DNA of 64,000 nt from Kaistia sp. (GCA_965229085.1 OZ245859.1:1140207-1204206), one strand, 5' to 3'; positions 8,212-30,560 are shown, counted from the stretch's first letter. Numbers and translations: made by a program. The notes: generated by a model not told the origin, from the sequence alone.

Positions 8212-8263
8212 AAGATGGTTTCGGCTCCGGGGCGGCCGTGCATGCAGGCATAGGGAGAACGCC

Positions 8264-9779: not shown

Positions 9780-9809
9780 GCCGGACTGGTGGCATGATCC
9801 AGGCGAGAG

Positions 9810-11638: not shown

Positions 11639-12094
11639 ATGAAGATCGCCGTTGCCGGAGACAGCGCAGGAGAAGGCCTCTCCAAGATCATCGCCGACCA
11701 TCTCAAGGGACGCTTCGATGTATCCGAGGTGTCGAACACAGAGGCAGGTCCCGACCCGTTCTATGCAGATCTCGCCGACCGCGTCGCCTCGGGTGTGCTC
11801 GACGGGACCTATGACAAGGCGATCCTGATCTGCGGCACCGGGATCGGCGTCTCGATTTCGGCCAACAAGGTGCCCGGAATTCGCGCCGCCCTGACGCATG
11901 ACACCTATTCGGCGGAGCGTGCGGCGCTGTCCAACAATGCGCAGATCATCACCATGGGCGCGCGCGTCATCGGCTCGGAGCTCGCCAAGGCGATCGCCGA
12001 CGCCTTCCTCGCGCAAACCTTCGATGAAAAAGGCCGCTCGGCCGGCAATGTCGATGCGATCAACGCGGTCGACGCCAAATACAACGCCCGCTGA
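11639..12094 (+). CDS. eryI: RpiB/LacAB family isomerase (D-erythrulose-4-phosphate isomerase EryI/DerI type)
   Basis: [49 protein letters not shown], closely matching the Brucella/rhizobial EryI pattern as recalled. Confidence 0.82.
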
Positions 12095-12206: not shown

Positions 12207-13196
12207 TCAAGCCTCAGCCAGCAGTTGGCGGGCTGTATCGACGTCGGTCACCAGATCGGTCGGATAGCCGCCCTTCAACGCCGCCGAGATCGCGGCGATC
12301 TTGCGGGCTCCGCCGGCGACGCAGAGGCGATAGGGAATCGACTTCAGTTCGTCGAGCGCGATACCGACCATTCGATCCTGAATTCCGCCTGACACCGGGC
12401 GTCCGTCCGCATCAATGAACCGGCCGATGATGGCGGCAACCGCGCCATTGGCGACGAACGAATCGATCGTCGCGTTGTCGAGCAATTCCGCCTGGCGCAC
12501 CGTCGCCTGCGGGCCAAGGTCGCCCACGCCGAACAGGATGCGATTGGCCGATCGGACAATCGAAAACTGCCTGCTGATGGCCGGCTCGGCCAGGAGCTGA
12601 TCGCGCAGCAACGCTGTCGACAGGATCGCCGGAGCCATCAAGTTGACGCATCGCGCGGCAATGCGGTTGGCCAGCAGCGAAGAGCAAAGCTCTGGCGAAA
12701 ACGCGGTGGAGAGGCCAGTCGCCGACCCCGCCACCTGCACCACCGTCAGCGGACTGACCGGAGCCGTCAACGAGATCGCCCGCGCTGCCTCGAGCACCGT
12801 TCGGCCCCAGGCAACGCCGATGACATCGCCGGCCGATACATGATCGGCCAGGACCAGCGCAGCCGCCTCGCCCAAGCGACGCTCAAGCGCCTCGCCGTCC
12901 ATCGTCGGAATGACGATGGCGGATTCAAGTCCAAACCGCCGGACCAATGCCCGTGAGAGCTGCGCTCGGCTGGCAACGACTGTGTTGATGCGTATCGAGA
13001 CGATGCCTCGGCTCCGCGCCTCTTGCAGCATCTTGATAATCGTCACTCTGGATACGCCGATGATCTGTGCAATCTCGTTCTGCGTCAGCTCATCGACATA
13101 ATACATCCAGGCCGCCCACACGGTCGCATCTTCAAACTCAACCGGAATGCTTGCTGCGGCTGTCGATTGCGGCTGGTTGTGGTTGGCGGTGTCCAT
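12207..13196 (-). CDS. SorC/DeoR sugar-binding transcriptional regulator #1
   Basis: WAAWMYYVDELTQNEIA HTH; GVAWGRT; VAGGARKIAAISAALKGG; LVTD. Confidence 0.92.
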   Translation of the reverse strand: MDTANHNQPQSTAAASIPVEFEDATVWAAWMYYVDELTQNEIAQIIGVSRVTIIKMLQEARSRGIVSIRINTVVASRAQLSRALVRRFGLESAIVIPTMDGEALERRLGEAAALVLADHVSAGDVIGVAWGRTVLEAARAISLTAPVSPLTVVQVAGSATGLSTAFSPELCSSLLANRIAARCVNLMAPAILSTALLRDQLLAEPAISRQFSIVRSANRILFGVGDLGPQATVRQAELLDNATIDSFVANGAVAAIIGRFIDADGRPVSGGIQDRMVGIALDELKSIPYRLCVAGGARKIAAISAALKGGYPTDLVTDVDTARQLLAEA

Positions 13197-13250
13197 GAAC
13201 GAGTTCTCATCAAACTCGCCGCATGTGTCAAGCAAGGTCCAATCGGCGTA

Positions 13251-13278
13251 TTGACATATGTCGCGACACAGTTATCAT
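13251..13278 (+). promoter_or_regulatory. Putative sigma70 promoter overlapped by palindromic operator
   Basis: TTGACA(13251-13256)-16 bp-TATCAT(13273-13278); perfect palindrome GACATATGTC at 13253-13262. Confidence 0.6.
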
Positions 13279-13307: not shown

Positions 13308-14654
13308 ATGCAGGACGGCGCCGTGGCGACGCGAGACGCGCAGCAGGGATGGACGGCGTTGATCGACGACATCGTCGCTGGTCGCTGGATCAATCCCGAG
13401 ACTGGCCGCGCCGCGACCGTCCCCTATGAATCGATCGTGTTTGAGGTTTCGCTCGAAGGCCGCGAGGCCGATCTCGTGCAGTCGATGCGGCTCGGCTCGT
13501 CCCTCGCCGTCGTTTGCGACGAAGCCACCTATGAGGCCATGGGGCGGCGGGTGGCGACGGCCGTTGGCGCGCTCGGCCCTGTCAAGACGCTGGTCCTCGA
13601 CCATCCGCATGCAGATCTCGCCACAGTCGACGTGCTGAAGGAGAAGCTTGCCGGCGTCGAGGGCGTGATCGCGGTCGGCTCCGGAACGCTCAACGACCTC
13701 TGCAAATATGTGACCTACCAGGACGGCCGGCGATACTGCGTCTTCGGCACGGCCGGTTCGATGAACGGCTATACGTCGACGACGGCGTCCATGACGCTGG
13801 AGTCGGGGTTGAAGGTCTCGCTGCCGGCACATGCCCCGCGCGGCTTCTTCGTCGATCTCTCGGTCTCGGCCGCGGCCCCTGCTTTTCTCAACGCCGCCGG
13901 ATTTGGTGACTGCCTGGCGCGATCCGTCGCGCAGGTCGACTGGTGGATGTCGCACAGGCTGCTCGGGACGGACTATCTGCACGCGCCCTTCCTCATTCAG
14001 GAGAAGGACGAGGCGATCCTCAACAGCATGGCCGCGGCGCTGCGCGGCGGCGACATCGCGGCCGTCGCCTATCTCTATCGGGTACTGACCCTCTGCGGTC
14101 TCGGCGTTTCCCTGACGGGCGTCTCCAATCACGGTTCGATGGGTGAGCACCAGATTTCGCATTACATCGACTGCTTCGCCGGCGAGCGCCATCCAGGCAC
14201 CTTGCACGGCCAGCAGGTCGGCGTCGCCTCGCTGTCCATGGCGCGCCTGCAGCAGCGGATGCTCGCGAGTGACGCCCCGCCCAGGATCGGCGCGACTGAG
14301 ATCGACCAGGACGACATGATCAGGCGGATGGGTCCGAAGATCGCCCCGCAATGCCTCGCCGAATGGCAGCGCAAGGCCTTCGATGCAGCCGGAGCGGACG
14401 CACTGAATGCGCGCCTTGAGGCCATCTGGCCCGAATTGCGCGAGGAGCTTCAGGCCTTCGTGATCCCGGCGGCAGAGATGGAGCAGTTGCTGAGGGATGC
14501 CGGCGGGCCGACGACGGCGGCGGAACTCGGCGTTCCCCAGGACCTCTATCGCGAAGCGATCGTGCATAGCCGCGAAATGCGCAACCGCTTCTCGTTCCTC
14601 GATCTTGCCGCCGACGCTGGCGATCTCGAAGCGTTTGCGGCCGGCGAAGTCTGA
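13308..14654 (+). CDS. sn-glycerol-1-phosphate dehydrogenase-like (EgsA/AraM family) polyol-phosphate dehydrogenase
   Basis: AVGSGTLNDLCKY, GTAGSMNGYTS, GFGD, GEHQISH, LHGQQVG metal ligands. Confidence 0.8.
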   Translation: MQDGAVATRDAQQGWTALIDDIVAGRWINPETGRAATVPYESIVFEVSLEGREADLVQSMRLGSSLAVVCDEATYEAMGRRVATAVGALGPVKTLVLDHPHADLATVDVLKEKLAGVEGVIAVGSGTLNDLCKYVTYQDGRRYCVFGTAGSMNGYTSTTASMTLESGLKVSLPAHAPRGFFVDLSVSAAAPAFLNAAGFGDCLARSVAQVDWWMSHRLLGTDYLHAPFLIQEKDEAILNSMAAALRGGDIAAVAYLYRVLTLCGLGVSLTGVSNHGSMGEHQISHYIDCFAGERHPGTLHGQQVGVASLSMARLQQRMLASDAPPRIGATEIDQDDMIRRMGPKIAPQCLAEWQRKAFDAAGADALNARLEAIWPELREELQAFVIPAAEMEQLLRDAGGPTTAAELGVPQDLYREAIVHSREMRNRFSFLDLAADAGDLEAFAAGEV

Positions 14655-14682
14655 TTTCCTCGATCCAGCAAGGCGCGACGTC

Positions 14683-16239
14683 ATGAGCGCAGTCTATGAC
14701 CTGGCCATTATCGGCGGCGGCATCAACGGTTGCGGCATCGCACGCGATGCCGCCGGCCGGGGCCTGCACGTGCTGCTGGCCGAACAGTCGGATCTCGGAT
14801 CGGCGACCTCCTCCGCGTCCACCAAGCTTATCCATGGCGGGCTGCGCTATCTCGAGCATTACGAGTTCAAGCTGGTCCGGCATGCGCTGACGGAGCGCGA
14901 GCGGCTTTGGCAGATCGCGCCGCACATCATCTGGCCGCTGCGTTTCGTCCTGCCCTACCGCGACACTCTGCGGCCGGCCTGGCTGCTCCGATTGGGGCTG
15001 TTTCTCTACGACCACATTGGCGGCCGCAAACGCCTGCCAGCCTCGCGCACGCTGCGCCTGTCCGGATCGCCGCTGGGCGCGCCGCTGCGCGGCGACATCA
15101 CGCTCGGCTTCGAATATTCCGACTGCTGGGTGCAGGACAATCGCCTGGTGGTGCTGAATGCCCGCGATGCCGCCGATCGGGGCGCCGATATTCGTGTGCG
15201 AACCGAATGCGTCGGCGCGCGTCGGGTCGGCGCACTCTGGGAAGTCGATCTCGTCGATCGCCAGACGGGCAAGGCCTCGACGATCACCGCCCGCGTGCTG
15301 GTCAATGCCGCCGGACCCTGGGTCGACCGCGTCGCCAAGATCGCAGTGGGACCCTCCGCGCGCGCTTCCATCCGTCTTGTGCAGGGCTCGCATATCGTCG
15401 TGCCGCGGCTCGCGAACCACGATCGCTGCTACATTTTCCAGAACGCCGACAAGCGCATCGTCTTCGCCATTCCCTACGAGGCGGACTTCACGCTGATCGG
15501 CACAACCGACCGCGACTTCAAGGGAGACCTCGACCGCGTGGCGGCATCCGAGGAGGAGATTGCCTATCTCTGTGCCTCGGCGAGCGACTACTTCAAGGCC
15601 CCGGTGCGGCGCGAGGACGTGACATGGAGCTATTCCGGCGTCCGCCCGCTCTATGATGACGGCGCCGCGGCCGCGCAGGAAGCGACGCGCGACTATGTGC
15701 TGAAGCTCGAGGCCGAGCCTGGACAAGCGCCGCTTCTCAGCATTTTCGGCGGCAAGATCACGACCTATCGCTGCCTCGCGGAAGACGTGCTCGCCAAGCT
15801 CGCCGCGATCCTTCCGGAAGCCGGACGGCATGTCGGCTGGACCGCGACGCAGCCGCTGCCAGGCGGGAATTTCCCGATCGATGGCGCGGGCAATCTCGCG
15901 GAGGCGCTGAAGCGCGCGCACCCATTCCTGACCGACGCGCAGGCGGAACGGTTTGTCCGCCACTACGGCACGCTCAGTCACCGCATTCTCGGCAAGGCCG
16001 AAACCGCCACCGATCTCGGCCGGGACTTCGGCGGCGGACTGAGCGCGGCCGAGGTCGACTATCTGATGCAAAGCGAATTTGCCCGAACCGCCGAAGATGT
16101 CGTCTGGCGGCGGACAAAGTCGGGGCTGCGCATGAGCGCGGAGGAAATTGCGGCGCTCGATGGCTGGATGAGGGCGCACGCCATCACCGGGGACGCGCCG
16201 ACGCAGCACGCAGAGACAAGACGGCGGGCGATCGCCTGA
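14683..16239 (+). CDS. glpD: FAD-dependent glycerol-3-phosphate dehydrogenase (GlpD family)
   Basis: IIGGGINGCGIARDAAGRG, SSASTKLIHGGLRYLE, SYSGVRPL, GGKITTYR, DVVWRRTK. Confidence 0.85.
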   Translation: MSAVYDLAIIGGGINGCGIARDAAGRGLHVLLAEQSDLGSATSSASTKLIHGGLRYLEHYEFKLVRHALTERERLWQIAPHIIWPLRFVLPYRDTLRPAWLLRLGLFLYDHIGGRKRLPASRTLRLSGSPLGAPLRGDITLGFEYSDCWVQDNRLVVLNARDAADRGADIRVRTECVGARRVGALWEVDLVDRQTGKASTITARVLVNAAGPWVDRVAKIAVGPSARASIRLVQGSHIVVPRLANHDRCYIFQNADKRIVFAIPYEADFTLIGTTDRDFKGDLDRVAASEEEIAYLCASASDYFKAPVRREDVTWSYSGVRPLYDDGAAAAQEATRDYVLKLEAEPGQAPLLSIFGGKITTYRCLAEDVLAKLAAILPEAGRHVGWTATQPLPGGNFPIDGAGNLAEALKRAHPFLTDAQAERFVRHYGTLSHRILGKAETATDLGRDFGGGLSAAEVDYLMQSEFARTAEDVVWRRTKSGLRMSAEEIAALDGWMRAHAITGDAPTQHAETRRRAIA

Positions 16240-16317
16240 GGAGGCTTTTGCTCAACAAGAAGAACGACAAACGCGGACCAGAAACCGCCAGTCGACCTGA
16301 TCGGGAGGAACGTTCAG

Positions 16318-17043
16318 ATGACCCATCTACCCCTAGTCGCGATTACCGGCGCCAGTTCCGGAATTGGCGAAGCCGTGGCCAAGGCGTTTTCAGCCGCCGG
16401 CCATCCGGTCCTGATGATGGCCCGCCGGCTTGACCGCATGGAGGCGTTGAAGCTTCCGAACGCGATCTGCCGCAAGGTCGATGTCCGCGAGCGCGGCGAG
16501 ATCGCCGCAGCCGTTGCCGATGCCGAAGCGCTCTACGGTCCCGTCGACATGATGTTCTGCAATGCGGGGATCGCGAGGCTCGGCGACATCGGCAAGCAGG
16601 ATCCGGCCGAGTGGGACGAGATGATCGACATCAACGTCAAGGGCGTCATGAACACCGTCCATGCCGTGATGGCCGGCATGATGCAGCGCCGGCATGGCAC
16701 GCTGTTCATGATGAGCTCGATCGCCGGGCGAAAGGTTTATCCCGATCACACAGTCTATTGCGGCAGCAAGTTCTTCGTCCACGGCGTCGCAGAGAGCCTG
16801 CGGGAATATCTGTCGGCCTATGACATACGCGTCGCGGTGCTCTCGCCCGGCATCATCGAGACGGAAGTGCTCGACCATGTGACCGACAAAGATACGCTCG
16901 CCAACTATCGCAACAACAAGATGGCAATCGGCGGCGGCATCGGGCCGGAGCATCTCGCCGAGCTGATGCTCGCGACCTATCGGATGCCGCAGACCGTGCT
17001 GGTGCAGGAAATCTGCATGACGCCGACGCGGCAGAAATACTGA
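16318..17043 (+). CDS. Short-chain dehydrogenase/reductase (YdfG-like)
   Basis: TGASSGIG, NAG, SSIAG, YCGSK. Confidence 0.88.
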   Translation: MTHLPLVAITGASSGIGEAVAKAFSAAGHPVLMMARRLDRMEALKLPNAICRKVDVRERGEIAAAVADAEALYGPVDMMFCNAGIARLGDIGKQDPAEWDEMIDINVKGVMNTVHAVMAGMMQRRHGTLFMMSSIAGRKVYPDHTVYCGSKFFVHGVAESLREYLSAYDIRVAVLSPGIIETEVLDHVTDKDTLANYRNNKMAIGGGIGPEHLAELMLATYRMPQTVLVQEICMTPTRQKY

Positions 17044-17148
17044 TGCGTCCGCCTTCCTGCCCGTCCCCTGACCGCTTCCAAGCGGTGGATGGGCAGGAGA
17101 AGCAAGACGTCCCCTTCCCTCGCAGTGACTTGTTTTGGAGCACCCCGC

Positions 17149-19197
17149 ATGAAATCGCGCTGGTCGGATTCGGAATTTAAGACCGTCGTCGACGGCTATG
17201 TGAGATCCGGTCTCAACGCCGATCTGGCGACACGCGTCTACACGACAAGGCTGCTCGGCATCGACCCGGAACTCGTCCTGCATGGTGGCGGCAATACGTC
17301 GGTCAAAACCGTTCTGACGGAAGCGGACGGCAGCGAAGTGCCGGTCATCTGCGTCAAGGGCAGCGGCTGGGATATGGGCACGATCGAGCCGGCGGGGCTT
17401 CCGGCGGTGCGGCTGGCGGAGCTCGCGGCCCTCGCCCGCTTCGATACGTTGTCAGACATGGAAATGGTGCGCCAGCAGCGCCGTCTGTTGATGGACCCCG
17501 CCGCGCCGAACCCGAGTGTCGAGGCCATCCTGCATGCCCTCATTCCGGCCCGGCATGTCGACCACACCCATGCCAACGCCATCGTCTCGCTGACCAACCA
17601 GCCGAACGGCGAGGCGCTGGTCCGCGAACTCTTCCCCGACAGCATCATCGTTCCCTATGTGATGCCCGGCTTCGATCTGGCCAAGGCCTGCGCCAAGGCG
17701 CTCACCGAAGCGCCCGGTGCGACCAGCATGATCCTGCTAAAGCATGGCATCTTCACATGGTCTGACGATGCGCGCGAAACCTATGAGGCGATGATCGACT
17801 TCGTCGATCGCGCCGAGCGCCGTCTTGAGAAAGGTCGCGCGCGGCCGTTCGGAGCCGCATCGCAGCCGGCCGACCTCGCGGCGCCTGCTGATATCATGCC
17901 GATCCTGCGCGGGCGGCTGGCACAGGCGGGAGCGACCGAAGGCACCTTCAAGCGGATGGTGCTCACCTTCCGCAGCAGCCCTCAGATCCTCGATCTCTGC
18001 AACGCCCCCAACGCGGCCGACCTCGTCTCGCGCGGCAATGCGACGCCCGAGCATGTCATCCACATCAAGCGCAAGGGCCTCGCCCTCCCCGCGCCGCAGA
18101 TCGGCAAGCTGGATGTCTTCGCGGCGGAGCTCGACCGAGCGCTCGCCGACTATGTCGCCGATTACACCGCCTATTTCCAACGCAACAATGACCGGGTCGG
18201 CGGAGACCGCGTCATGCTCGACCCACTGCCACGCGTCTTCTACGTCGCCGGGCTCGGCATCTTCGCCGCCGGTCCGTCAGCGAAGGGCGCCAAAGTTGCC
18301 GCCGACGTCGCCGAAGCCACCGTCGACGTGATCACCAAGGCGGAGGGGATCGATGGCTGGGAGCCCCTGCCCGAAGCGGACCTGTTCGATATCGAATATT
18401 GGTCGCTGGAACAGGCGAAACTGGCCAAGCAGGCGGAGAAGCCACTGTCGCGCCAGATTGCCATCGTCACCGGCGGCGCCGGCGGATTGGGGCTGGCTGT
18501 CGCCAAGGCGCTGCGTGAGGAAGGTGCCGAGGTTGCGATCCTCGATATCGCCGCCGAGAGCGTCACGGCGGCAGCCAAGTCGATCGGCGCCATGGGTCTG
18601 CGCTGCGACGTCACGGACGCTGCCGCCGTGGACGATGCCGTTGCCTCGGTCGTCGCAGCCCTCGGGGGCGTGGATATCCTGATCTCCAACGCCGGCGCGG
18701 CGTTCCAGGGGGCGCTGACCAGCGTTTCCGACGAGACTTTCCACAAGGCGTTCGACCTGAATTTCTGGGCTCACCACTACATGGCGCGCGCTGTCGTTCG
18801 CGTCATGGAGACCCAGCAGACCGGCGGCGCGCTGGTGTTCAACGTCTCGAAGCAAGCCGTCAATCCCGGCGCGGATTTCGGCCCCTACGGGACGTCGAAG
18901 GCCGCTCTGATGGCGTTGATGCGGCAATATGCAGTGGAGCATGGCGCCTCGGGGATCACGTCGAACGCCGTCAATGCCGACCGTATCCGAACAGGACTGA
19001 TGACCGACGAGATGGTGGCCGACCGCAGCAGGGCACGGGGTCTGACGCCGGAATCCTATATGCGCGGCAATTTGCTGAAGCGCGAAGTGCTGACAGGCGA
19101 CGTGGCGGCGGCCTTCGTTCATCTGGCAAAGGCCCGCACCAGCACCGGTGCGGTCCTGACGGTCGATGGCGGCAACGTCGCAGCGATGATGCGGTAG
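17149..19197 (+). CDS. Bifunctional class II aldolase / short-chain dehydrogenase, paralog A
   Basis: HGGGNTSVK, VKGSGWD, PSVEAILH, DHTHAN, LKHG; C-terminal TGGAGGLG, NAG, YGTSK. Confidence 0.88.
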   Translation: MKSRWSDSEFKTVVDGYVRSGLNADLATRVYTTRLLGIDPELVLHGGGNTSVKTVLTEADGSEVPVICVKGSGWDMGTIEPAGLPAVRLAELAALARFDTLSDMEMVRQQRRLLMDPAAPNPSVEAILHALIPARHVDHTHANAIVSLTNQPNGEALVRELFPDSIIVPYVMPGFDLAKACAKALTEAPGATSMILLKHGIFTWSDDARETYEAMIDFVDRAERRLEKGRARPFGAASQPADLAAPADIMPILRGRLAQAGATEGTFKRMVLTFRSSPQILDLCNAPNAADLVSRGNATPEHVIHIKRKGLALPAPQIGKLDVFAAELDRALADYVADYTAYFQRNNDRVGGDRVMLDPLPRVFYVAGLGIFAAGPSAKGAKVAADVAEATVDVITKAEGIDGWEPLPEADLFDIEYWSLEQAKLAKQAEKPLSRQIAIVTGGAGGLGLAVAKALREEGAEVAILDIAAESVTAAAKSIGAMGLRCDVTDAAAVDDAVASVVAALGGVDILISNAGAAFQGALTSVSDETFHKAFDLNFWAHHYMARAVVRVMETQQTGGALVFNVSKQAVNPGADFGPYGTSKAALMALMRQYAVEHGASGITSNAVNADRIRTGLMTDEMVADRSRARGLTPESYMRGNLLKREVLTGDVAAAFVHLAKARTSTGAVLTVDGGNVAAMMR

Positions 19198-19268
19198 CGA
19201 GCGGCCAACCGGGAGGCGGGGCCGATCCCGATCGATCGGTCCTTGACTCCTGACACAGCGCGCTCATG

Positions 19269-19305
19269 CTTTACAAAAGTCTTTGGTATTGTTTCTTGTG
19301 TAAAG
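19269..19305. promoter_or_regulatory. Imperfect inverted repeat upstream of the CUT1 ABC operon, putative operator
   Basis: CTTTACAAAAG-15 bp-CTTGTGTAAAG (10/11 match) in an AT-rich intergenic region. Confidence 0.45.
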
Positions 19306-19552
19306 GCGTTTTGCCCCGGCTTCCGGCGCTAAGCGCCAGAGCCGGGGAACAGCAACGAAGAGACAGAGGAACCTGATAGCCAGCAAACTTACCCAGCGTC
19401 GATGCAGCAGGAGGATCGCACCGACGATGTGTAGCCGACAAAAAAACTGGCAGGTGCGGAGCTGATCGGTAGATCAAGCTCCGTACAAAGCAAAAACAAT
19501 AAGAAAATTCCGTTCGGAGATAACGCTCGCTTATGAGCCATTGGAGGAAACA

Positions 19553-20923
19553 ATGAAGAGAATAGCTACCACTGCATTGGCGCTGGCCATGTCCGGTTTG
19601 TCCGGCGCGGCTATTGCCGCAGATTATGAGAAGGCGGTCGCCGACTCCGTCGCCACCTACGCAGCCCCCGGCGCGTTCGATGGCGTGACGATCAATGTCG
19701 CCTGCCGCAGCCTGCCTGCGATGGACTTCATCGCCAGCCACAAGGACATCTTCGAGAAGGCCACGGGCGCGACGATCAAGTTCACCAACTATCCGGAGAA
19801 CGATCTGCGCAGCAAGATCGTGGCCGATGCCTCGAATAAGGTTGGCGGCTTCCAGATTTACTGCCTCGACAACAACTACATCCCGCTATTCGCCTCCAAC
19901 AAGTGGGTGGCTCAGATCGATTCGGCGATCAAGCCGGACTACAAGCTCGATGACGTGTTTGACAGCCTGAAGACGTCCTATTCCTGGCAGGGCGGCCTCT
20001 ACGGCCTGCCGATCTATTCGGAAGTGACGCTTCTCTACTATCGCAAGGATCTTCTCGACGCCGCCGGCATCATGCCGCCCAAGACGCTCGACGAACTCGA
20101 GGCCGCCGCTGCCAAGCTGACCAAGCCGCCGCAGACCTTCGGTATCGCGTTGCGCGGCCTGCGTGGCGAGGGCATGAACGCCTATACGTGGACCGAGTGG
20201 ATGCGGTCCTATGGCGCCAACTTCCTCGATGCCAACATGCATCCGGTGTTCAATTCGCCTGAGGCCATCGAGGGCACCGAGCACTATTCCAACCTGATCA
20301 ACAAGTATGGCTCGCCGGGCAACGGCACCTGGGGCTGGGACAAGGTTTCCTCGGCCTTCGCGGCCGGCCGGGTCGCGATGATCGTGGAATCGAGTGCTTT
20401 CTACCCGGTCTTCAACGATCCGAAGCAGTCCAGCGTCGTCGGCAAGGTTGGCTATGAAGTGGTTCCGGCAGGCCCCAAGGGCGCCTTCCCGGCCAACTAC
20501 TCGATCGGCCTCGCCATTCCCTCGACCATCGACCCGGCGAGCAAGACCTTCGCCGCGGCGACCGCCTTCCTGCAGTGGGCTACGTCGCAGGAGATGGAGT
20601 TCGCCCGTACCGACAAGGATATCGGCAATGAGGACCGCAAGTCGGTCAACCAGTCCGACCTCTTGAAGAGCAAGATCGACGCTGGCTACATCAAGGCCGT
20701 GCAGGACGGCCAGGCGATCACCAAGACCCATTATCGCCCGATGATCCCGCAGTGGCGCGAGATGGGCGACATCATCGGCGCCGAGATCGAGTCGAGCTTC
20801 ACGGGTGGCAAGAGTGCCAAGGAAGCCCTCGACGCGGCGGCCGACCAGGTGACCGCTCGCTTCAAGAGCCAGGGCGTGCTCGACACGCCGCGCGCCTATC
20901 CGGAAATCTTCCCGGACAAGTAA
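19553..20923 (+). CDS. Sugar/polyol ABC transporter substrate-binding protein (CUT1, family 1)
   Basis: Signal peptide MKRIATTALALA...AIA; YGLPIYSEVTLLYYRKDLL; FAAGRVAMI; RBS GGAGG. Confidence 0.9.
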   Translation: MKRIATTALALAMSGLSGAAIAADYEKAVADSVATYAAPGAFDGVTINVACRSLPAMDFIASHKDIFEKATGATIKFTNYPENDLRSKIVADASNKVGGFQIYCLDNNYIPLFASNKWVAQIDSAIKPDYKLDDVFDSLKTSYSWQGGLYGLPIYSEVTLLYYRKDLLDAAGIMPPKTLDELEAAAAKLTKPPQTFGIALRGLRGEGMNAYTWTEWMRSYGANFLDANMHPVFNSPEAIEGTEHYSNLINKYGSPGNGTWGWDKVSSAFAAGRVAMIVESSAFYPVFNDPKQSSVVGKVGYEVVPAGPKGAFPANYSIGLAIPSTIDPASKTFAAATAFLQWATSQEMEFARTDKDIGNEDRKSVNQSDLLKSKIDAGYIKAVQDGQAITKTHYRPMIPQWREMGDIIGAEIESSFTGGKSAKEALDAAADQVTARFKSQGVLDTPRAYPEIFPDK

Positions 20924-20964
20924 GCGGACACGGACGCCTCGCAACGAGACGCCTGCCACGGCTT

Positions 20965-20988
20965 CCGCCGCCCCTCAGGGGGCGGCGG
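20965..20988 (+). other. Stem-loop after the SBP gene (mRNA stabiliser/attenuator-like)
   Basis: CCGCCGCCCC-TCAG-GGGGCGGCGG. Confidence 0.5.
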
Positions 20989-21139
20989 GATGCGGGTGTG
21001 AGGCTGGGTTCTGCCGGTGATCTCAAGGCCGAACCCGCGTCTGACGCCGGCACGACGTCCAAGTCCGGTCCGGGCCTCCATCGTTCCGGCCCGCCTTGAT
21101 CGGCGTCCCCCTTCCTGCACGCTCATAGGAAACTGACCC

Positions 21140-22072
21140 ATGCTCGCCAATGCGAACCTCGAGAGCGGCAGTTCGGCTTTGCCGCCGGCCAAGACCCGTT
21201 TCCGGCCGTCCCGCTGGCTGGTGCCCCTTCCGGGCTATCTGCTGCTTGCCGTCCTGACGCTGCCGCCGTTCCTCTATGGCGTCTATCTCTCGCTGGTCGA
21301 CATCGACATCGCCATTCCCAACCGCCCGGTCAGCTTCATCGGTCTGGCCAACTACCGCGAAATCCTGTTCAACCCGGCGGGCCAGAACGCGATCTTCAAC
21401 ACGCTGATCCTGTCCTTCTCGTCGACAATCGCGGCGGTGCTTTTCGGCATGGTGGTCGCCTATCTGATCGCCTTCTTCGCCGGGCGCTTCTCGGGCCTGG
21501 TCGTCGTCTTCGTGCTCATTCCGCTGTCAGTCTCGCCGGTTGCCGTCGCGCTGGTGTTCAGCCTGATGCTGGACCCGCTCTATGGGCCGATCCCACAGGT
21601 CATCTATTCGCTGACCGGATCGCTGATCGCGCCGACCTCCAATATCCTCGGGGCGCGTCTGGTCATCATCCTGCTGCAGGCCTGGCAGTGGTCGCCCATC
21701 GCGGTGATCCTGCTGCTCGGCGGCATCCAGAGCCTGCCACGCGAGCCCGTCGAGGCGGCGCTGATCGATGGCGCATCGCTCTGGCAGATCATCCGCAAGG
21801 TGCATATGCCGCTGCTGCGGCCGCTGATCGCCGTCACCGCCATTTTTGAATTCATCCTGTGCAGCCAGGTCTTCGCCGCCACGCAGCTCCTGACCAATGG
21901 CGGTCCCGGGACGTCGACGGTCGATCTCTCGCTGTTCATCTACAAGGTCGGCATCGCCGAATCCGGGCAGGTCTCGCTCGCTGCGGCCGCCGGCATCATC
22001 GCCCTCATCATGGGGCTGCTGAGCGCCGCGCTGTGGCTTCGCGTCACCAAGTGGGAAAAGGAGATCTACTGA
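21140..22072 (+). CDS. CUT1 ABC transporter permease (MalF-like)
   Basis: IGLANY, WQWSP, EAALIDGA, NGGPG. Confidence 0.9.
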   Translation: MLANANLESGSSALPPAKTRFRPSRWLVPLPGYLLLAVLTLPPFLYGVYLSLVDIDIAIPNRPVSFIGLANYREILFNPAGQNAIFNTLILSFSSTIAAVLFGMVVAYLIAFFAGRFSGLVVVFVLIPLSVSPVAVALVFSLMLDPLYGPIPQVIYSLTGSLIAPTSNILGARLVIILLQAWQWSPIAVILLLGGIQSLPREPVEAALIDGASLWQIIRKVHMPLLRPLIAVTAIFEFILCSQVFAATQLLTNGGPGTSTVDLSLFIYKVGIAESGQVSLAAAAGIIALIMGLLSAALWLRVTKWEKEIY

Positions 22073-22941
22073 TGGCTGCCTCTGATACCCCCACCAACGC
22101 CTCGCCGCTCGCCGTAGGCCAGATCGGACCGGTCGGCACCTGGATCGGCCGCATCTGCCTCATTCTCGCGCTCGCGATCTGGGTCGGGCCGCTCTACTGG
22201 CTCATCAACACCGCGCTCAAGGTCAAGGTTCAGATCCAGAGCGCGGCGCCGGTCTGGTTTCCCGATCCGATCACATTCGAGAACATCCAGTGGGTGCTCG
22301 ATAATCTCGACCAGGGGGCATTCTTCCGCAGCATCCGGGTTGTCAGCGTCTCTGTCGGCATCGCCATGTTCTTCGGACCGCTGATGGCCTACGCGCTGTC
22401 GCGCTTCAAGACGCGCTACAACGGCCAGCTCGAGAACTGGATCATCTCGACGCGCATGACGCCGCCGGCGGCAATGATCATGCCCTATTACTTCCTGGCG
22501 CTGCATACCGGGCTGATGAACAACGAGTTCGGCCTGATCATCGTCTATGTTGCGATCAATCTGCCGCTTGCCGTCTGGATCATGCTCGCCTTCCTGCGCT
22601 CCATGCCGGACGATGCGGAAGAGGCCGCGCTCATCGACGGCTGCAGTGTCTGGCAGGCGTTCTTCCTGATCGTACTACCGACACTCAAGCAGTCCATCAT
22701 CTCGGGCGGCCTGCTCGTTCTGATCCTGGCCTGGAACGAGTTCTTCATCGCCTTCGTCCTGATGTCGTCCAACATCACATTCCCGGTTCAGGTCGGCAGC
22801 TTCCTCGCCGTCGGCCTCAATCCCGAATATGGACACATGGCGGCCGCCGGGCTTCTGCTGTCGCTGCCGCCCATCCTGATCGCGGTCATCTTCCGGAAAT
22901 CCCTGCTGACAGGCGTTCATGCCTTCTCGGGAGGCAAGTGA
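22072..22941 (+). CDS. CUT1 ABC transporter permease (MalG-like)
   Basis: EEAALIDG, ILAWNEF; TGATG coupling to the previous gene. Confidence 0.9.
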   Translation: MAASDTPTNASPLAVGQIGPVGTWIGRICLILALAIWVGPLYWLINTALKVKVQIQSAAPVWFPDPITFENIQWVLDNLDQGAFFRSIRVVSVSVGIAMFFGPLMAYALSRFKTRYNGQLENWIISTRMTPPAAMIMPYYFLALHTGLMNNEFGLIIVYVAINLPLAVWIMLAFLRSMPDDAEEAALIDGCSVWQAFFLIVLPTLKQSIISGGLLVLILAWNEFFIAFVLMSSNITFPVQVGSFLAVGLNPEYGHMAAAGLLLSLPPILIAVIFRKSLLTGVHAFSGGK

Positions 22942-24482
22942 TGCAAGATCTGGTTGTCGGCATCGATTCCTCGACCTCGGCGACGAAGGCGATCGCCTGG
23001 GATATCGACGGGCGGGCGGTGGCCGAGGGACGCGCCGCCATCCCGCTCTCCAATCCCAAGGTCGGCCATTTCGAGCAGGACCCCGCTGACTGGTGGGGTT
23101 CGACGGTCACGGCGCTCGGGCAGTTGACCGCAAAGGTCGACGCATCGCGCATTGCCGGGGTCGCGATCTCGAACCAGCGCGAGACATTCGCTCTGTTCAC
23201 CAACACCGGCGAGGCCGTGCGGCCGGGGCTGACCTGGCTCGACGACAGGGCGACGCCGCAGCAGCACAGCTTCGGCGCCCTGTTCGGCGCCGACGAGATC
23301 CGCTCCGTCACGGGCAAGCCGCTGGACGTCATTCCCTCCCTTTACCGGATGATCTGGTTGAAGGAGCACGAACCCGAGGCACTCGATCGCGCGGACCGCT
23401 ATGCCGATGTCCACGCCTTCCTGACGTTCCAACTCACCGGCGCCTGGCTGACTTCGATAGCCTCCGCCGATCCGAGCGGCATGGTCGACATGCGCGCGGG
23501 ACAATGGTCGGAGGATGTGCTGACCGCCGCCGGACTGCCGATGCGGCTGATGCCGGACGTCCGCCGGCCTGGAACCCGTCTCGGCGAGGTCAGCGCTGCC
23601 GGGGCGGCGGCGACCGGACTTCTGGCCGGAACGCCTGTCATCGCCGGCGGTGGCGACGGCCAATGCGCGGGCACCGGCGCCGGCGTGCTCGGCACCGGTC
23701 GCGGCTATATCAATCTGGGAACTGCGCTCGTCGCCGGGACCTTCGGCCGCGCCTATGCCCACGACCTCGGCTTCAGGACGGAGATCGCGATCGCCGAGGA
23801 GGGGTATATTTTCGAGACCTGCCAACGCTCGGGCACGTTCCTCGTCGACTGGCTCACGCAGGAGATGATGGGCGTGCCGGCTTCCGGCAGGTCGGCCTTC
23901 CTGGCCGCTATGGAAGCTGAGGCTTCGGCAAGCCCGATCGGCGCCGGCGGCGTGATGCTGCTGCCCTATTGGCAGGGCTCGATGACGCCACATTGGGACA
24001 GCGCGGCGCGCGGCGTCATTGCGGGTCTTTCGGGTTCGACGCGGCGTGGCGATCTCTACCGCGCCCTGCTGGAAGGGCTCGCGCTCGATCTCGCCGTGTC
24101 GCTTACCAAGGCGATGGCGGCGACGGGGCAGCCGATCGACCGCTTCCAGGCCATCGGCGGCGGAGCCAGTTCCGACCTCTTTCTACGGATCCTGGCCGAC
24201 GTGCTGGATCGCCCCATCGACCGCTCGGCCGCGAAGGAGGCTTCATCGCTGGGCGCCGCCATGGCGGCGGCGAAGGGCGTCGGCTGGTTTGCAACGATCG
24301 ACGAGGCATCCGCCGCGATGGGCGGCCGCGTCGTTGCCACCTTCCTGCCGGAGCCGCGCAACGTCGCCGCCTACAAGGCGCTCGGCGCGATCTATGACGA
24401 ACTCTGGCCGCTGCTGCGAAGCTGGAATCAAAGGCGCGCCGATCTCGTGGCTGCACTCGCGGCTTCCGAGCCCACCGGTTGA
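22941..24482 (+). CDS. FGGY-family carbohydrate kinase (xylulokinase-like)
   Basis: GIDSSTSATKA, SNQRETF, TWLDDR, GGGDGQC, GTA, AIGGG. Confidence 0.9.
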   Translation: MQDLVVGIDSSTSATKAIAWDIDGRAVAEGRAAIPLSNPKVGHFEQDPADWWGSTVTALGQLTAKVDASRIAGVAISNQRETFALFTNTGEAVRPGLTWLDDRATPQQHSFGALFGADEIRSVTGKPLDVIPSLYRMIWLKEHEPEALDRADRYADVHAFLTFQLTGAWLTSIASADPSGMVDMRAGQWSEDVLTAAGLPMRLMPDVRRPGTRLGEVSAAGAAATGLLAGTPVIAGGGDGQCAGTGAGVLGTGRGYINLGTALVAGTFGRAYAHDLGFRTEIAIAEEGYIFETCQRSGTFLVDWLTQEMMGVPASGRSAFLAAMEAEASASPIGAGGVMLLPYWQGSMTPHWDSAARGVIAGLSGSTRRGDLYRALLEGLALDLAVSLTKAMAATGQPIDRFQAIGGGASSDLFLRILADVLDRPIDRSAAKEASSLGAAMAAAKGVGWFATIDEASAAMGGRVVATFLPEPRNVAAYKALGAIYDELWPLLRSWNQRRADLVAALAASEPTG

Positions 24483-25342
24483 TGGCCGAAACAGTGAGAT
24501 CCAGCATGCAACCGATCGACGCCCTCCCCGCCTCCGTCTGCCGCAACCTCATCGGCGTCCTGACCGATATCGACGACACGATCACCACGGAAGGCCACCT
24601 CCCCTCCGCCGCCTATGCCATGCTGGAGCGGCTGAAAGAGGCCGGACTGCTGGTCATCCCGATCACCGGTCGCCCGGCCGGCTGGTGCGATATGATTGCA
24701 CGCTTCTGGCCGGTTGACGGCGTCGTGGGCGAAAACGGCGCCTTCTCGTTCCGCTATGATCACGGCGCGCGGCGCATGGAACGCCAGTTCGTCGCCTCGG
24801 AGGCAGAGCGAAAGGAAAGCCGTGGCCGGCTCGCCGTCCTCGCCGAGAAGATCTTGGCCGAGGTGCCGGGATCGGCCGTCGCCTCCGATCAACTCTACCG
24901 CGAAGCGGATCTCGCCATCGATTTTTGCGAAGACGTGCCGCCGCTGGACAGAGCGGATATTGATCGCATCCTCGCCCTTTTCGATGAGGCGGGCGCGGTT
25001 GCGAAGGCGTCGTCGATCCATGTCAACGGCTGGTTCGGCGGCTGGGACAAGCTGTCGATGACGCGGCTCTTCCTCGCCGACGCCTTCGGCATCGACATCG
25101 ACGCGGCGCGTGAGCGCTTCATCTTCTGTGGCGACAGCCCCAATGACGTGCCGATGTTCTCGTTCTTTCCTTCGGCATGCGGCGTCGCCAACATCATCGA
25201 CTTCGCCGACAGCCTCGCGGCTGAGCCGGCCTATGTCGCGAGGTCACGCGGCGCGCAAGGCTTCGTCGAGATCGCAACGCATATCCTGGCGGCAAGACAG
25301 GATGCCCCCGCCGCATCCGAATTCGACAAGGGAGGGCGCTGA
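24482..25342 (+). CDS. HAD-IIB family phosphatase
   Basis: DIDDT, TGRP, GENG, GDSPND motifs. Confidence 0.85.
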   Translation: MAETVRSSMQPIDALPASVCRNLIGVLTDIDDTITTEGHLPSAAYAMLERLKEAGLLVIPITGRPAGWCDMIARFWPVDGVVGENGAFSFRYDHGARRMERQFVASEAERKESRGRLAVLAEKILAEVPGSAVASDQLYREADLAIDFCEDVPPLDRADIDRILALFDEAGAVAKASSIHVNGWFGGWDKLSMTRLFLADAFGIDIDAARERFIFCGDSPNDVPMFSFFPSACGVANIIDFADSLAAEPAYVARSRGAQGFVEIATHILAARQDAPAASEFDKGGR

Positions 25343-25343
25343 C

Positions 25344-26435
25344 ATGGCATCCGTCACCATCAACAATATCCGCAAGAACTACGGATCGCTGGAAGTCGTG
25401 CATGGTCTCAACCTGCAGATTCCCGATGGCCAGTTCGTGGTGCTGCTGGGGCCGTCGGGCTGCGGAAAGTCCACCTTGCTCAGGATGATCGCCGGGCTCG
25501 AATCCGTCACGTCGGGCACGATTTCCATCGGGCCTCAGGTCGTCAACGATATGCATCCCAAGGATCGCAATATCGCGATGGTGTTCCAGAACTATGCGCT
25601 CTACGCGCATATGAACGTCTTCGACAACATGGCCTTCTCGATGCGGCTGAAGAAGACCAGCGAGGCTGACATCAAGAAGCGGGTCGATGCGGCCGCGGCG
25701 ATCCTGGGGCTCGAACCCTATCTCGAGCGCCTGCCGCGTCAGCTTTCCGGCGGACAGCGCCAGCGCGTCGCCATGGGCCGGGCCATCGTGCGCGATCCGC
25801 ATGTATTCCTGTTCGATGAGCCGCTCTCCAATCTCGATGCCAAGCTGCGCGTGCAGATGCGCACCGAGATCAAGGAACTGCACCAGCGCCTGAAGACCAC
25901 CACGGTTTATGTCACGCATGATCAGATCGAAGCCATGACGATGGCCGATGTCGTGGTGATCATGCGGGACGGCCATATCGAGCAGGTCGGGCGGCCGCTC
26001 GATATCTATGACAATCCCCGCAACCTCTTCGTCGCCGAGTTCATCGGCTCGCCCGGCATCAACCTGATCGAGGGCGAGATTTCAGGCAACAATGGCGAGC
26101 CCGTGGTCCGAGCCGGCGCAACGCTCTGGCCGTTGCCGGCCGCTGCGGCCGCCCTCGTCCGGCCAGGACAGAAGATCATCTACGGCATCAGGCCGGAGCA
26201 TCTTTCACCTGTCATGGCGGACCAGGCCGGCGGCGGCGGCATCGCTGCGCGGGTTTCGGTGGTGGAGCCGACGGGTTCCGAAATCCACATCTATGCCGAC
26301 ACGGAAGGGCACGAAGTCTGTACGATTTCGCGCGACCGGCTCGGCTGGGCGCCGGGCTCCGATATCAGGCTGACGCCGATGCTCGATCGGGTCCATTTGT
26401 TCGATCGCGAGAGCCGGAGCGCCATTCATGCCTGA
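25344..26435 (+). CDS. CUT1 ABC transporter ATPase (MalK/UgpC-like)
   Basis: GPSGCGKS, LSGGQRQRVAMGRA, FLFDEPLSNLDAKLR, TOBE tail. Confidence 0.95.
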   Translation: MASVTINNIRKNYGSLEVVHGLNLQIPDGQFVVLLGPSGCGKSTLLRMIAGLESVTSGTISIGPQVVNDMHPKDRNIAMVFQNYALYAHMNVFDNMAFSMRLKKTSEADIKKRVDAAAAILGLEPYLERLPRQLSGGQRQRVAMGRAIVRDPHVFLFDEPLSNLDAKLRVQMRTEIKELHQRLKTTTVYVTHDQIEAMTMADVVVIMRDGHIEQVGRPLDIYDNPRNLFVAEFIGSPGINLIEGEISGNNGEPVVRAGATLWPLPAAAAALVRPGQKIIYGIRPEHLSPVMADQAGGGGIAARVSVVEPTGSEIHIYADTEGHEVCTISRDRLGWAPGSDIRLTPMLDRVHLFDRESRSAIHA

Positions 26436-27477
26436 GATCGTCATCCTCGGCGCCGGCGTCATGGGCAGCGCCATGTCGATGCCGGCGGCTGCCGGCGGCG
26501 CCAGCGTCGCGCTGGTCGGGACGCATCTCGACACGGAGATCATCCGCTCGGTGTCCGGCAATGGCTGGCATCCACGGCTCGGCGTGACACTGCCGGCCGA
26601 GGTGAAGGCCCATCAGTGGACCGAACTCGGCGCCGCCCTCGCCAAGGCGCCCGACCTCGTGATCCTCGGGGTCTCCTCAGCGGGTATCGACTGGGCGATC
26701 GACCGGCTTGTCGAAACCCTGTCGCGGCCGACACCGATCCTGATGATCACCAAGGGGCTCGCAACGGACGGCACCACGATTGAAGTGCTGCCGGCCCGGG
26801 TTAAGCGTGAAATCAGCCGCCGCAGCGGCTTCGATGTTCCCGTCATGGCCGTGGGCGGACCCTGCATCGCGGGCGAGCTGGCGGCAATGCGGGACACGTC
26901 GGTCGTCATCGCCGGCGATATCAGGTCCGAGGTTGACCGAGCCCTCGCCTTGCTGCGCTCGCCCTATTATCACGCGCGCGCCACGGACGATGTCCTCGGC
27001 GTCGAGGTCTGCGCCGCGTTCAAGAATTTCTATGCGATTTCCGTCGGCTCTGTCGGAGGACAGTTGGAGCGCAGCGGCAAGGCGTCCAACGCCGCGCTGA
27101 TGCACAATCTCGCCGCTTCGACCTTCACCCAGGCGCTCAGGGAAATGCACGAACTCGTCGTCGCGCTCGGTGGCGACCCGGCCACCGTGCCCGGGCTGGC
27201 CGGAGCGGGTGATCTCTATGTGACCTGCCAAGCTGGCCGCAATGGCAGGATGGGGCGCCTGCTCGGACTTGGACTGCCCTATTCAGAGGCGAAATCCGAC
27301 CACATGCCGACCGATACCGTTGAAGGCGCCAATCTGGCGCTGGAGCTCGGGCAAACGATCGAGCTGATGATGGCAGATGGCCGCCTCACCGCCGACAAGA
27401 TGCCGCTGACACGTGCGATCGTCGCAGCCATCTGCCGGGACGAACCGCTGATCCTGGACTTCGCACGGTTTCACTGA
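26428..27477 (+). CDS. NAD(P)H-dependent glycerol-3-phosphate dehydrogenase-like (GpsA family)
   Basis: GAGVMG, TKG, GPCIAGEL, FKN, GLAGAGDLYVTC, GRN, VEG. Confidence 0.8.
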   Translation: MPEIVILGAGVMGSAMSMPAAAGGASVALVGTHLDTEIIRSVSGNGWHPRLGVTLPAEVKAHQWTELGAALAKAPDLVILGVSSAGIDWAIDRLVETLSRPTPILMITKGLATDGTTIEVLPARVKREISRRSGFDVPVMAVGGPCIAGELAAMRDTSVVIAGDIRSEVDRALALLRSPYYHARATDDVLGVEVCAAFKNFYAISVGSVGGQLERSGKASNAALMHNLAASTFTQALREMHELVVALGGDPATVPGLAGAGDLYVTCQAGRNGRMGRLLGLGLPYSEAKSDHMPTDTVEGANLALELGQTIELMMADGRLTADKMPLTRAIVAAICRDEPLILDFARFH

Positions 27478-30466: not shown

Positions 30467-30560
30467 CGGGGATTCCGTCCAGACGGGCGTGGGCGAGGCA
30501 TGAAGTGAGGGTGGCCAGCTTGCCGCGCGCTCCCGGATGGGGCCGGCGCGCGTTGGCCGG

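Follow-up and report, generated by a model that had tools for sequence, protein, structure and literature searches.

Gene content of the cassette

A stretch of 64,000 nucleotides of Kaistia sp. (OZ245859.1:1140207-1204206), referred to here as the window and used as the frame for all positions below unless another sequence is named, contains a cluster of 11 co-directional genes that we describe as a cassette for polyol phosphates. The genome is complete (4.76 Mb, 65% GC) and belongs to the order Hyphomicrobiales. The cluster is bounded by a divergent SorC-family regulator, SorC1 (12207-13235, - strand; Pfam Sugar-bind and HTH), and by a second regulator of this family, SorC2 (27696-28655, +; Pfam Sugar-bind). 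Three of the 11 genes encode homologues of glycerol-phosphate dehydrogenases: a 448-residue NAD(P) dehydrogenase of the Fe-ADH_2 family that resembles AraM and sn-glycerol-1-phosphate (G1P) dehydrogenase (G1PDH) and is here called G1PDHl (13308-14654, +), a paralogue of the FAD enzyme GlpD (14683-16239, +), and a GpsA-like NAD(P) dehydrogenase (26428-27477, +). An earlier reading made from the DNA alone (the sequence-only reading) had located and identified these three genes correctly, all on the + strand.

The other eight genes, likewise on the + strand, encode a 241-residue NADP-type short-chain dehydrogenase/reductase (SDR), here SDR241 (16318-17043); a class II aldolase fused with an SDR domain, here aldolase-SDR (17089-19197; Aldolase_II and adh_short domains); a CUT1 ABC transporter composed of a substrate-binding protein (19541-20923, with a probable true start at the ATG at 19553), two permeases (21140-22072 and 22069-22941; BPD_transp_1) and an ATPase of the UgpC/MalK type (25344-26435; 487 bits with NF008653); an FGGY kinase (22938-24482; FGGY_N/C); and a HAD-IIB phosphatase whose start overlaps the kinase stop (24479-25342).

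A sigma-70-like promoter ahead of the G1PDHl gene (13251-13278, +; 11/12 consensus match) overlaps a 10-bp palindrome, GACATATGTC, which is a putative SorC operator. In view of this strong promoter and of two intergenic gaps inside the cluster, one of 343 bp (19198-19540) and one of 216 bp (20924-21139), the cluster is not one operon, and the gaps imply two or three transcription units. Palindromes of the form TTGAC(A/G)TATGTC are found at 13251-13262, 43357-43368 and 48050-48061, each within the promoter region of a different SorC-associated locus, and a 29-bp inverted repeat at 36449-36512 holds a variant of the same palindrome. Related operator-like palindromes have 7 matches in the window versus 1.4 expected. 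The palindromes suggest a family of putative, paralogous SorC operators across the genomic island that contains the cassette.

The three dehydrogenases

G1PDHl has the Fe-ADH_2/DHQS-like fold (PF13685, 112 bits) with the nucleotide-binding motif GSGTLND at residue 124, and its best match in the PDB is 9h4x. It also retains GEHQISH, LHGQQVG and both His metal ligands. The remaining metal ligand is an Asp in the solved relatives (SVDG in 9h4x, SNDG in 4rgq and 3ce9, SHDG in 5fb3), and at this position G1PDHl has Asn153 (S-M-N-G-Y-T-S), which leaves the Asp-His-His site incomplete. Of 120 close homologues, 119 have the Asn, which is also present in homologues of 40-49% identity, while a G1PDH-like relative from Rubrobacter retains the Asp (S-M-D-G-Y-T-S). 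With the G1PDH equivalog model NF002022 the protein scores 132.6 bits, compared to a cut-off of 413. The claim that all three enzymes possess intact catalytic motifs is borne out for GlpD and the GpsA-like protein and is only partly true for G1PDHl, because its Asp ligand is replaced by Asn153.

The cassette GlpD passes the equivalog model NF008899 (765 bits, cut-off 360), has the DAO + DAO_C architecture and carries the N-terminal FAD motif GGGING. In a GlpD tree, the GlpDs of 14 cassettes (the window and 13 other loci) form a clade of their own with a support of 100 in the Shimodaira–Hasegawa-like approximate likelihood ratio test (SH-aLRT). This clade is separate from the housekeeping GlpD clade, which includes the second GlpD of this genome, and lies outside the EryB clade (also SH-aLRT 100), with 49-51% identity to EryB. 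Five rows of the tree were wrong-frame open reading frames from the automatic extraction that produced an artefactual long branch, and were disregarded.

The GpsA-like protein contains both NAD_Gly3P_dh domains (PF01210, PF07479) and falls below every NCBIfam GpsA cut-off (best 138.9 bits, cut-off 257). Its motifs GAGVMG, K109, K199-N200, D262...T266 and R271-N272 align with the substrate residues of PDB entry 1txg, which is its top PDB match. It is an extra paralogue, as the housekeeping GpsA is encoded elsewhere, at genome position 3120238. None of the three proteins looks like a housekeeping enzyme, and all are cassette-specific paralogues.

Other proteins of the cassette

Both variants of the binding protein have the same top PDB match, 5iai, a ribitol complex (PMC8468352), and that of the window is also a strong match to 4rya, a D-mannitol binder (PMC12718374). 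The binding protein is of the polyol type and not of the UgpB/GpxB type. Among the FGGY models the kinase scores highest with XylB (282 bits, below the cut-off of 380), its score with GlpK is 184 bits, and its identity to EryA is only 27-28%.

The phosphatase exceeds the cut-off of its subfamily model (TIGR01484, 60.8 bits against 41.8) and its motifs DIDDT (residue 30) and GDSPND are intact; PDB searches with this protein gave nothing informative. In one genome (G050) a HAD-IIA protein takes the position of HAD-IIB, and HAD-IIA is likewise found in the actinobacterial-type clusters. The exchange of one subfamily for the other at the same position indicates that phosphatase activity is required.

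SDR241 is 64-83% identical across loci. Its nearest PDB entries are 3p19, 2jah (clavaldehyde dehydrogenase), 6ixj (sulfoacetaldehyde reductase) and 3asu (YdfG), and it groups with NADPH-dependent reductases of small carbonyls, among them BfgV and the three named enzymes, that is, with small-aldehyde reductases. The aldolase-SDR matches the uncharacterised model NF006192 (1010 bits) and does not reach the cut-off of the RhaD model TIGR02632 (468.5 bits against 567.75). A paralogue of it, 68.5% identical, is encoded at 34363-36411 (-) in a second operon (28688-36411, -) together with a ribose-type binding protein, an ATPase, a permease and a Dak-family kinase, and a SorC gene lies beside this operon (36578-37531, +). 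The second operon looks like a system for the uptake of a ketose, possibly erythrulose, with phosphorylation by the Dak kinase and an aldolase route parallel to that of the cassette.

Distribution and variants

A search with G1PDHl yielded 75 loci in Rhizobium, Mesorhizobium, Agrobacterium, Paracoccaceae, Lichenihabitans, Acetobacteraceae, Thiothrix and others. The constant partners across these ~75 loci are a divergent SorC regulator (a SorC1 homologue is divergent from the G1PDHl gene in nearly all of them), the FGGY kinase, a HAD phosphatase, SDR241 and the CUT1 transporter; GlpD is present in about one third and aldolase-SDR in about one half. The GpsA-like gene sits directly after the aldolase-SDR gene, a position which in ten genomes was outside the 10-kb flank examined and where the gene was recovered by a whole-genome search. 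Cassettes that combine all three types of dehydrogenase are present in at least 13 genomes of Alphaproteobacteria, a count that includes R. leguminosarum Vaf-108 and A. salinitolerans pAt.

The cassettes have two architectures. The window represents type B, in which the kinase gene is downstream of the transporter genes and the kinase is 55-63% identical between loci. Minimal cassettes in two genomes (G181 and G057) consist only of transporter, kinase, G1PDHl, HAD-IIB, GpsA-like protein and SorC, and are terminated by SorC2 homologues. In two others (G020 and G076) G1PDHl, HAD and GlpD are joined with a true XylB, a ribose-type transporter and a pentulose kinase, and a Bradyrhizobium variant has G1PDHl, an SDR and a FucA-sized aldolase.

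Some loci show signs of decay: the aldolase-SDR of G050 (G050:C6:409623-410972) has two stop codons, and the RpiB-like gene after the GpsA-like gene of A. salinitolerans (L077, 15172-15586) is frameshifted. For R. etli p42a (L081) only kinase, SorC, G1PDH-like, SDR and aldolase-SDR genes are listed, in a PLSDB gene table that is incomplete, and decay is uncertain. A recurrent trio of a 340-353-residue class II aldolase, a short (~421 residues) FGGY-like kinase and a HAD-IIA protein, often accompanied by a zinc-dependent alcohol dehydrogenase (Zn-ADH), lies beside the G1PDH-like gene in three loci (L084 15671-18820, L086 17701-19820 and L070 8345-11466). The trio and its neighbour mirror araD/araB/araL/araM of the B. 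subtilis ara operon.

The same enzyme set is present in another phylum, on Rubrobacter indicoceani plasmid NZ_CP031116.1 (L207, 643-18815), where all genes are co-directional. Their order is FGGY, fructose-bisphosphate aldolase (FBA), Zn-ADH, Dak, HAD-IIA, G1PDH-like, FAD oxidoreductase and rpiB, followed by FGGY, a second G1PDH-like gene, FGGY, a GpsA-like gene (38% identical to that of the window), a GlpD/O-like gene and HAD-IIB, which amounts to two G1PDH-like genes, one keeping the Asp, and three FGGY kinases. One soil contig (L208) has the order RpiB-HAD-FGGY-G1PDH-like with another FGGY beside a GpsA-like gene ~10 kb downstream, and a second (L209) has FGGY-HAD-G1PDH-like-RpiB-FGGY-GpsA-like. 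RpiB is a core member of the neighbourhood in these clusters from outside the Alphaproteobacteria, and Rpe is encoded nearby in the Rubrobacter plasmid and in the first of these contigs. By its phyletic spread the gene combination is evidently older than the Alphaproteobacteria.

Within the searchable literature, no description of the cassette was found for the gene combination, for threitol kinase or for tetritol-phosphate dehydrogenases, and it goes unmentioned in a survey of ery loci. The cassette is a widespread, mobile and previously undescribed polyol-phosphate module.

Genomic context and the erythritol genes

Directly upstream of the cassette is an eryR-tpiB-rpiB module, with 50%, 75% and 84% identity, respectively, to the proteins of the R. 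leguminosarum ery locus. It encodes an orthologue of the DeoR-family regulator EryR (9810-10604, -; Pfam HTH_DeoR and DeoRC), a triose-phosphate isomerase (TIM) paralogue of the TpiB/LerI type, i.e., the type of L-erythrulose-1-P isomerase (10858-11628, +; P stands for phosphate here and below), and an RpiB/DerI-type D-erythrulose-4-phosphate isomerase (11639-12094, +; 252 bits with the equivalog model NF051858, cut-off 240). This RpiB is the sole one in the genome; the housekeeping TIM (35% identity) is encoded elsewhere. Searches of the Kaistia genome found no EryA orthologue and no GlpD of the EryB clade, and for EryC the best E-value was 1.3, so that the genome has no canonical ery locus by these searches.

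The module and the cassette share one strain-specific block of ~50 kb (9.8-60.3 kb) flanked by two tRNA-Met genes (7146-7222 and 60364-60440). In the nearest Kaistia metagenome-assembled genome the segments that align to 7146-9781 and to 60319-62474 are separated by only ~3.9 kb, and the block is found neither in the nearest Kaistia genome nor in three congeners. The genes scanned at the block's right-hand end included no integrase. The cassette was acquired horizontally.

The cassette is associated with tetritol genes. Among 301 genomes sampled evenly across the order, an ery-type TpiB is encoded by 13 of the 18 that have a close G1PDHl homologue, compared with 35 of 301 overall (p = 4e-10 by Fisher's test), and counting by genus gives 6 of 10 versus 7 of 119 (p = 5e-5). 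The cassette adjoins tpiB/rpiB/eryC in at least five genera, namely Kaistia (without eryC), Ahrensia, those of G050 and G044, and a genus (g48) in which a second eryC copy lies ~15 kb from the cassette. The most clear-cut example is Ahrensia marina: in its complete genome, eryC, a fructose-1,6-bisphosphatase (FBPase) gene and eryR-tpiB-rpiB are followed by the cassette, which occupies the position of the kinase, dehydrogenase and transporter genes (eryA/eryB/eryEFG) of canonical loci; the whole genome contains no EryA and no GlpD of the EryB clade. RpiB-like genes are also located within the cassettes of G057, G035, G282, L070 and L077 (the frameshifted gene of A. salinitolerans), and the RpiB genes of distant cassettes are generic RpiB only when compared with the DerI model.

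A class 1 FBPase, with or without a class II FBA, is encoded inside ery-type loci of a Paracoccus sp. TOH plasmid (L079) and of L036 (5606-6682), which is consistent with the Brucella exit from erythrose-4-P and dihydroxyacetone phosphate (DHAP) to sedoheptulose-bisphosphate.

Two simple roles for the cassette were considered and rejected. One is a general replacement for EryC: EryC is present in most TpiB-positive genomes with a cassette, and some of these carry another copy of it close by the cassette. The other is that aldolase-SDR and TpiB/EryC are complementary, alternative exits: G181, G057, G020 and G076 have neither. Of these, G181 has a divergent TIM+RpiB pair elsewhere in its genome.

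Interpretation and alternatives

Among the tetritol phosphates, D-erythritol-4-P (which is the same compound as L-erythritol-1-P) resembles sn-G1P, and its oxidation beside the phosphate gives L-erythrulose-1-P directly. L-threitol-1-P resembles sn-glycerol-3-phosphate (G3P) and also gives L-erythrulose-1-P, and the G1P-like D-threitol-4-P gives D-erythrulose-1-P. In the known erythritol pathway EryA forms L-erythritol-4-P, which is sn-G3P-like beside the phosphate, the GlpD homologue EryB oxidises it to D-erythrulose-1-P, and EryC epimerises the latter to L-erythrulose-1-P, the substrate of LerI/TpiB (PMC10733421). The sequence-only reading had proposed that a GlpD-type enzyme acting on L-threitol-1-P or a G1PDH-type enzyme acting on L-erythritol-1-P would produce L-erythrulose-1-P and make EryC unnecessary; its stereochemistry is right by the definitions of PMC10733421.

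These observations lead us to the tentative view, in which we place a little less than even confidence, that the cassette is a SorC-regulated module for alditol catabolism and that tetritols (erythritol or threitol) are its likeliest substrates. In this scheme, whose substrate, regiochemistry, stereochemistry and order of steps we infer, the CUT1 system would import an acyclic polyol and the XylB-like kinase would phosphorylate a terminal CH2OH, the 'D-glycero' end by analogy with XylB, to give an sn-G1P-like configuration; G1P-like alditol phosphates are to be expected from XylB ancestry, which fits the pairing with a G1PDH-type enzyme. The G1PDH/AraM-derived NAD(P) enzyme would oxidise the G1P-like epimer, and the quinone-linked GlpD paralogue and the NAD(P)-linked GpsA paralogue would oxidise the G3P-like epimer or epimers. 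Such a set of dehydrogenases would be stereochemically complementary, and epimeric substrates would converge on one keto-phosphate. The adjacent isomerases TpiB (LerI) and RpiB (DerI) may carry this product to erythrose-4-P, or the aldolase-SDR may cleave it to DHAP and a small aldehyde that would be oxidised at once, an exit supported by the recurrence of the fusion or of a free class II aldolase among the loci. Erythritol would thus pass through L-erythritol-1-P to L-erythrulose-1-P, and L- or D-threitol would enter through the partner dehydrogenases. As L-erythrulose-1-P is the direct substrate of LerI, EryC would be dispensable in the Kaistia genome. The phosphatase may clear wrong-isomer or surplus alditol phosphates, and SDR241 probably acts where the pathway begins or ends, in the interconversion of an alcohol and a small aldehyde or ketone.

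Possible, though on balance doubtful, is a 'mirror-image' erythritol pathway, in which the XylB-like kinase would form D-erythritol-4-P and G1PDHl would oxidise this to L-erythrulose-1-P without EryC, and the GlpD and GpsA paralogues would take the threitol epimers. In such a pathway L-erythrulose-1-P may go straight to LerI/DerI or to an erythrulose-1-P aldolase fused with an aldehyde dehydrogenase.

Several observations weigh against tetritols as the substrates. Most TpiB-positive cassette genomes also carry EryC and EryA/EryB, and the cassette is therefore not generally an EryC bypass; that EryC is unnecessary agrees with its absence from Kaistia and, as a general rule, is weakened by its presence in most other cassette-bearing genomes. 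The proposal that tetritol phosphates are the substrates is similarly supported by the genomic context in Kaistia and Ahrensia and weakened by the 4 of 18 genomes (G181, G057, G020 and G076) that have neither ery-type TpiB nor EryC nor aldolase-SDR, although the cassette of G057 includes a gene for an RpiB-like protein. As formulated in the sequence-only reading it accounts for neither the conserved phosphatase, the small SDR nor the aldolase-SDR, and neither the obligatory phosphatase nor SDR241 is needed in our own scheme or in any other that we could devise. Formaldehyde would be set free if a tetrulose-1-P were cleaved. With Asn at the metal site, even the reaction catalysed by G1PDHl is uncertain. 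Finally, the XylB and pentulose kinase of G020 and G076, the Rpe near the clusters of L207 and L208, and the ribitol held by the nearest solved binding protein all fit pentitols, which for these reasons remain a serious alternative.

In that alternative, which we judge unlikely without dismissing it, a pentitol or hexitol (ribitol, arabitol, xylitol, a hexitol) would be phosphorylated and oxidised beside the phosphate to a ketose-1-phosphate, from which the class II aldolase would produce DHAP and glycolaldehyde or glyceraldehyde. Processing of the aldehyde would fall to the SDR domain and SDR241, salvage of the resulting glycerol phosphate to the GlpD and GpsA-like enzymes, and the proximity of ery genes would reflect a polyol 'super-locus' as in S. 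meliloti, whose ery locus also contains genes for adonitol and L-arabitol (PMC3599248). Such a route gains from the frequency of the aldolase or aldolase-SDR and from the fact that both types of binding protein share the ribitol complex as top match, but many cassettes have no aldolase. Moreover, RpiB/DerI, TpiB/LerI and EryC are specific for tetrulose phosphates and would not be needed for ribulose 5-phosphate or xylulose 5-phosphate, and Ahrensia and Kaistia hold these isomerases without EryA/EryB to feed them. A different possibility, and to our mind an improbable one, is that the kinase, the G1P-type and G3P-type dehydrogenases and the phosphatase together invert one carbinol centre of a polyol by way of phosphorylated intermediates, or that they act in damage control by oxidising or hydrolysing dead-end alditol phosphates that FGGY kinases would form as adventitious products. 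It would explain why minimal cassettes retain only ABC transporter, FGGY kinase, G1PDHl, HAD and GpsA-like protein beside the regulator, why the phosphatase is constant even to the point of non-orthologous replacement, and why the G1PDHl-HAD-GlpD trio is paired with different kinases. However, ATP would be spent for nothing, since pairs of dehydrogenases could do the same without phosphorylation, and the dedicated transporter, the aldolases and the linkage to RpiB/TpiB would be unaccounted for.

We give still less credence to the other proposal of the sequence-only reading, that the module oxidises both enantiomers of glycerol phosphate, or interconverts them via DHAP, with G1PDHl acting on sn-G1P and GlpD and the GpsA-like enzyme on sn-G3P. 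In its favour, each of the three enzymes is homologous to a glycerol-phosphate dehydrogenase, the GpsA-like protein has all the residues that bind DHAP/G3P, and DHAP requires no further exit, which would suit the minimal cassettes; furthermore, there are bacteria that grow on G1P, and no intracellular G1P enzyme has been assigned in them (PMC12718374). The proposal nevertheless fails to explain why G1PDHl should be so far below the equivalog cut-off and without the Asp, why the binding protein should be of the polyol type, what purpose a kinase would serve if a phosphate ester were imported, or why TpiB, as well as RpiB, aldolases and a phosphatase, the latter three not needed for glycerol phosphate, should be recurrent partners. 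In addition, the G1P-induced proteome of Phaeobacter contains no G1PDH-like protein, and the transporters there are of other types (2025 PNAS paper). Finally, the genes could be unrelated and lie together by chance in a mosaic island, as might be imagined from a strain-specific block with several sugar loci and from a gene order that is shuffled between genomes. We regard this as almost certainly wrong, because, for all the changes in gene order, the set itself is met again in dozens of genera and in a second phylum; the grouping of three dehydrogenase types to which the sequence-only reading had drawn attention is conserved in the alphaproteobacterial genomes counted above and has an equivalent in Actinomycetota.

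Whatever the substrate, the results bear on annotation. Thousands of bacterial proteins are named 'sn-glycerol-1-phosphate dehydrogenase' by homology alone, and our searches found >2,500 homologues for the G1PDHl of the window and >5,900 for the Rubrobacter protein. Alphaproteobacterial members are often located beside GlpD-/GpsA-type paralogues and tetrose-phosphate isomerases, and given the altered metal site and the constant company of a sugar kinase, a phosphatase and polyol transport genes, their annotation as G1PDH is probably wrong. If tetritols are indeed the substrates, genes would be assigned to a pathway whose biochemistry dates from the 1960s and which was never cloned, the use of erythritol by organisms that have eryR-tpiB-rpiB but not eryABC would be explained, and three unrelated folds would have been recruited for stereoisomers of one substrate class. 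If the mirror-image form of the pathway is correct, the large family of bacterial G1PDH-like proteins would gain its first function in catabolism and its first on a substrate other than glycerol, and there would be a natural aldolase specific for L-erythrulose-1-P, such as is wanted for the synthetic assimilation of formaldehyde. With tetritols as substrates, the dehydrogenase forming L-erythrulose-1-P and the aldolase would also be candidates for engineered C1 assimilation through erythrulose monophosphate (PMC10733421).

Comparison with known systems

The cassette resembles the erythritol pathway of Brucella and Rhizobium in polyol uptake by an ABC transporter, an FGGY kinase, oxidation beside the phosphate and isomerases leading to erythrose-4-P, as well as in the attached EryR, TpiB and RpiB orthologues and a regulator of the SorC/EryD type. 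That pathway comprises the kinase EryA, the GlpD-type EryB, the epimerase EryC, TpiB/EryH and RpiB/EryI (Barbier 2014, summarised in PMC10733421 and PMC3599248). In contrast, the Kaistia genome has neither an EryA orthologue nor EryC, its cassette GlpD is not of the EryB clade, and the transporter is of the CUT1 rather than the ribose type of EryEFG. The cassette adds the G1PDH-type and GpsA-type enzymes, the HAD phosphatase, the small SDR and the aldolase-SDR.

The tetritol pathways of Mycobacterium smegmatis employ the dehydrogenases EltD/DthD, the Dak-type kinases LerK/DerK, and LerI and DerI (Huang 2015, summarised in PMC10733421). Their end steps are shared, LerI being of the TpiB type and DerI of the RpiB type, and Dak-family kinases and Zn-ADHs adjoin the cassette in the window, G044, L070 and Rubrobacter. 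However, M. smegmatis oxidises and then phosphorylates its substrates, whereas the order proposed for the cassette is the reverse, and no G1PDH-, GlpD- or GpsA-type enzyme has been reported for the M. smegmatis pathways.

G1PDHl shares the fold, the NAD-binding motif and two His metal ligands with EgsA/AraM (EC 1.1.1.261), and its nearest solved relative, 9h4x, is an AraM. It differs from these enzymes in its score far under the equivalog cut-off, in the Asn for Asp, in ~50 extra residues, and in a context of catabolic polyol use, not ether-lipid synthesis. The araABDLMNPQ operon of B. subtilis encodes an FGGY kinase (AraB), a member of the class II aldolase family (AraD), a HAD protein (AraL) and a CUT1 ABC transporter (AraNPQ) besides AraM, and the cassette partners are strikingly parallel. 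The aldolase-SDR has the class II aldolase + SDR architecture of RhaD/YuxG, presumably with the same logic of cleaving a ketose-1-phosphate and oxidising the aldehyde, unlike which it falls short of the RhaD model and is accompanied by no rhamnose isomerase or kinase.

The proposed fate of erythritol, and the mirror-image pathway in particular, matches the degradation of erythritol by Propionibacterium pentosaceum. As described by Wawszkiewicz in 1968, this route reportedly proceeds from erythritol through L-erythritol-1-P to L-erythrulose-1-P, which is then cleaved. L-erythrulose-1-P is an intermediate of this route, for whose erythrulose-1-P aldolase the cleavage direction has been suggested (PMC10733421, citing Wawszkiewicz 1968), and the genes of the route remain unidentified (PMC4437456). 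Compared by activities alone, it needs a kinase that forms the sn-G1P-like enantiomer, a matching dehydrogenase and an erythrulose-1-P aldolase. By analogy, the cassette could supply all three, the first from its FGGY kinase gene, the second from the G1PDHl gene and the third from the class II aldolase gene.

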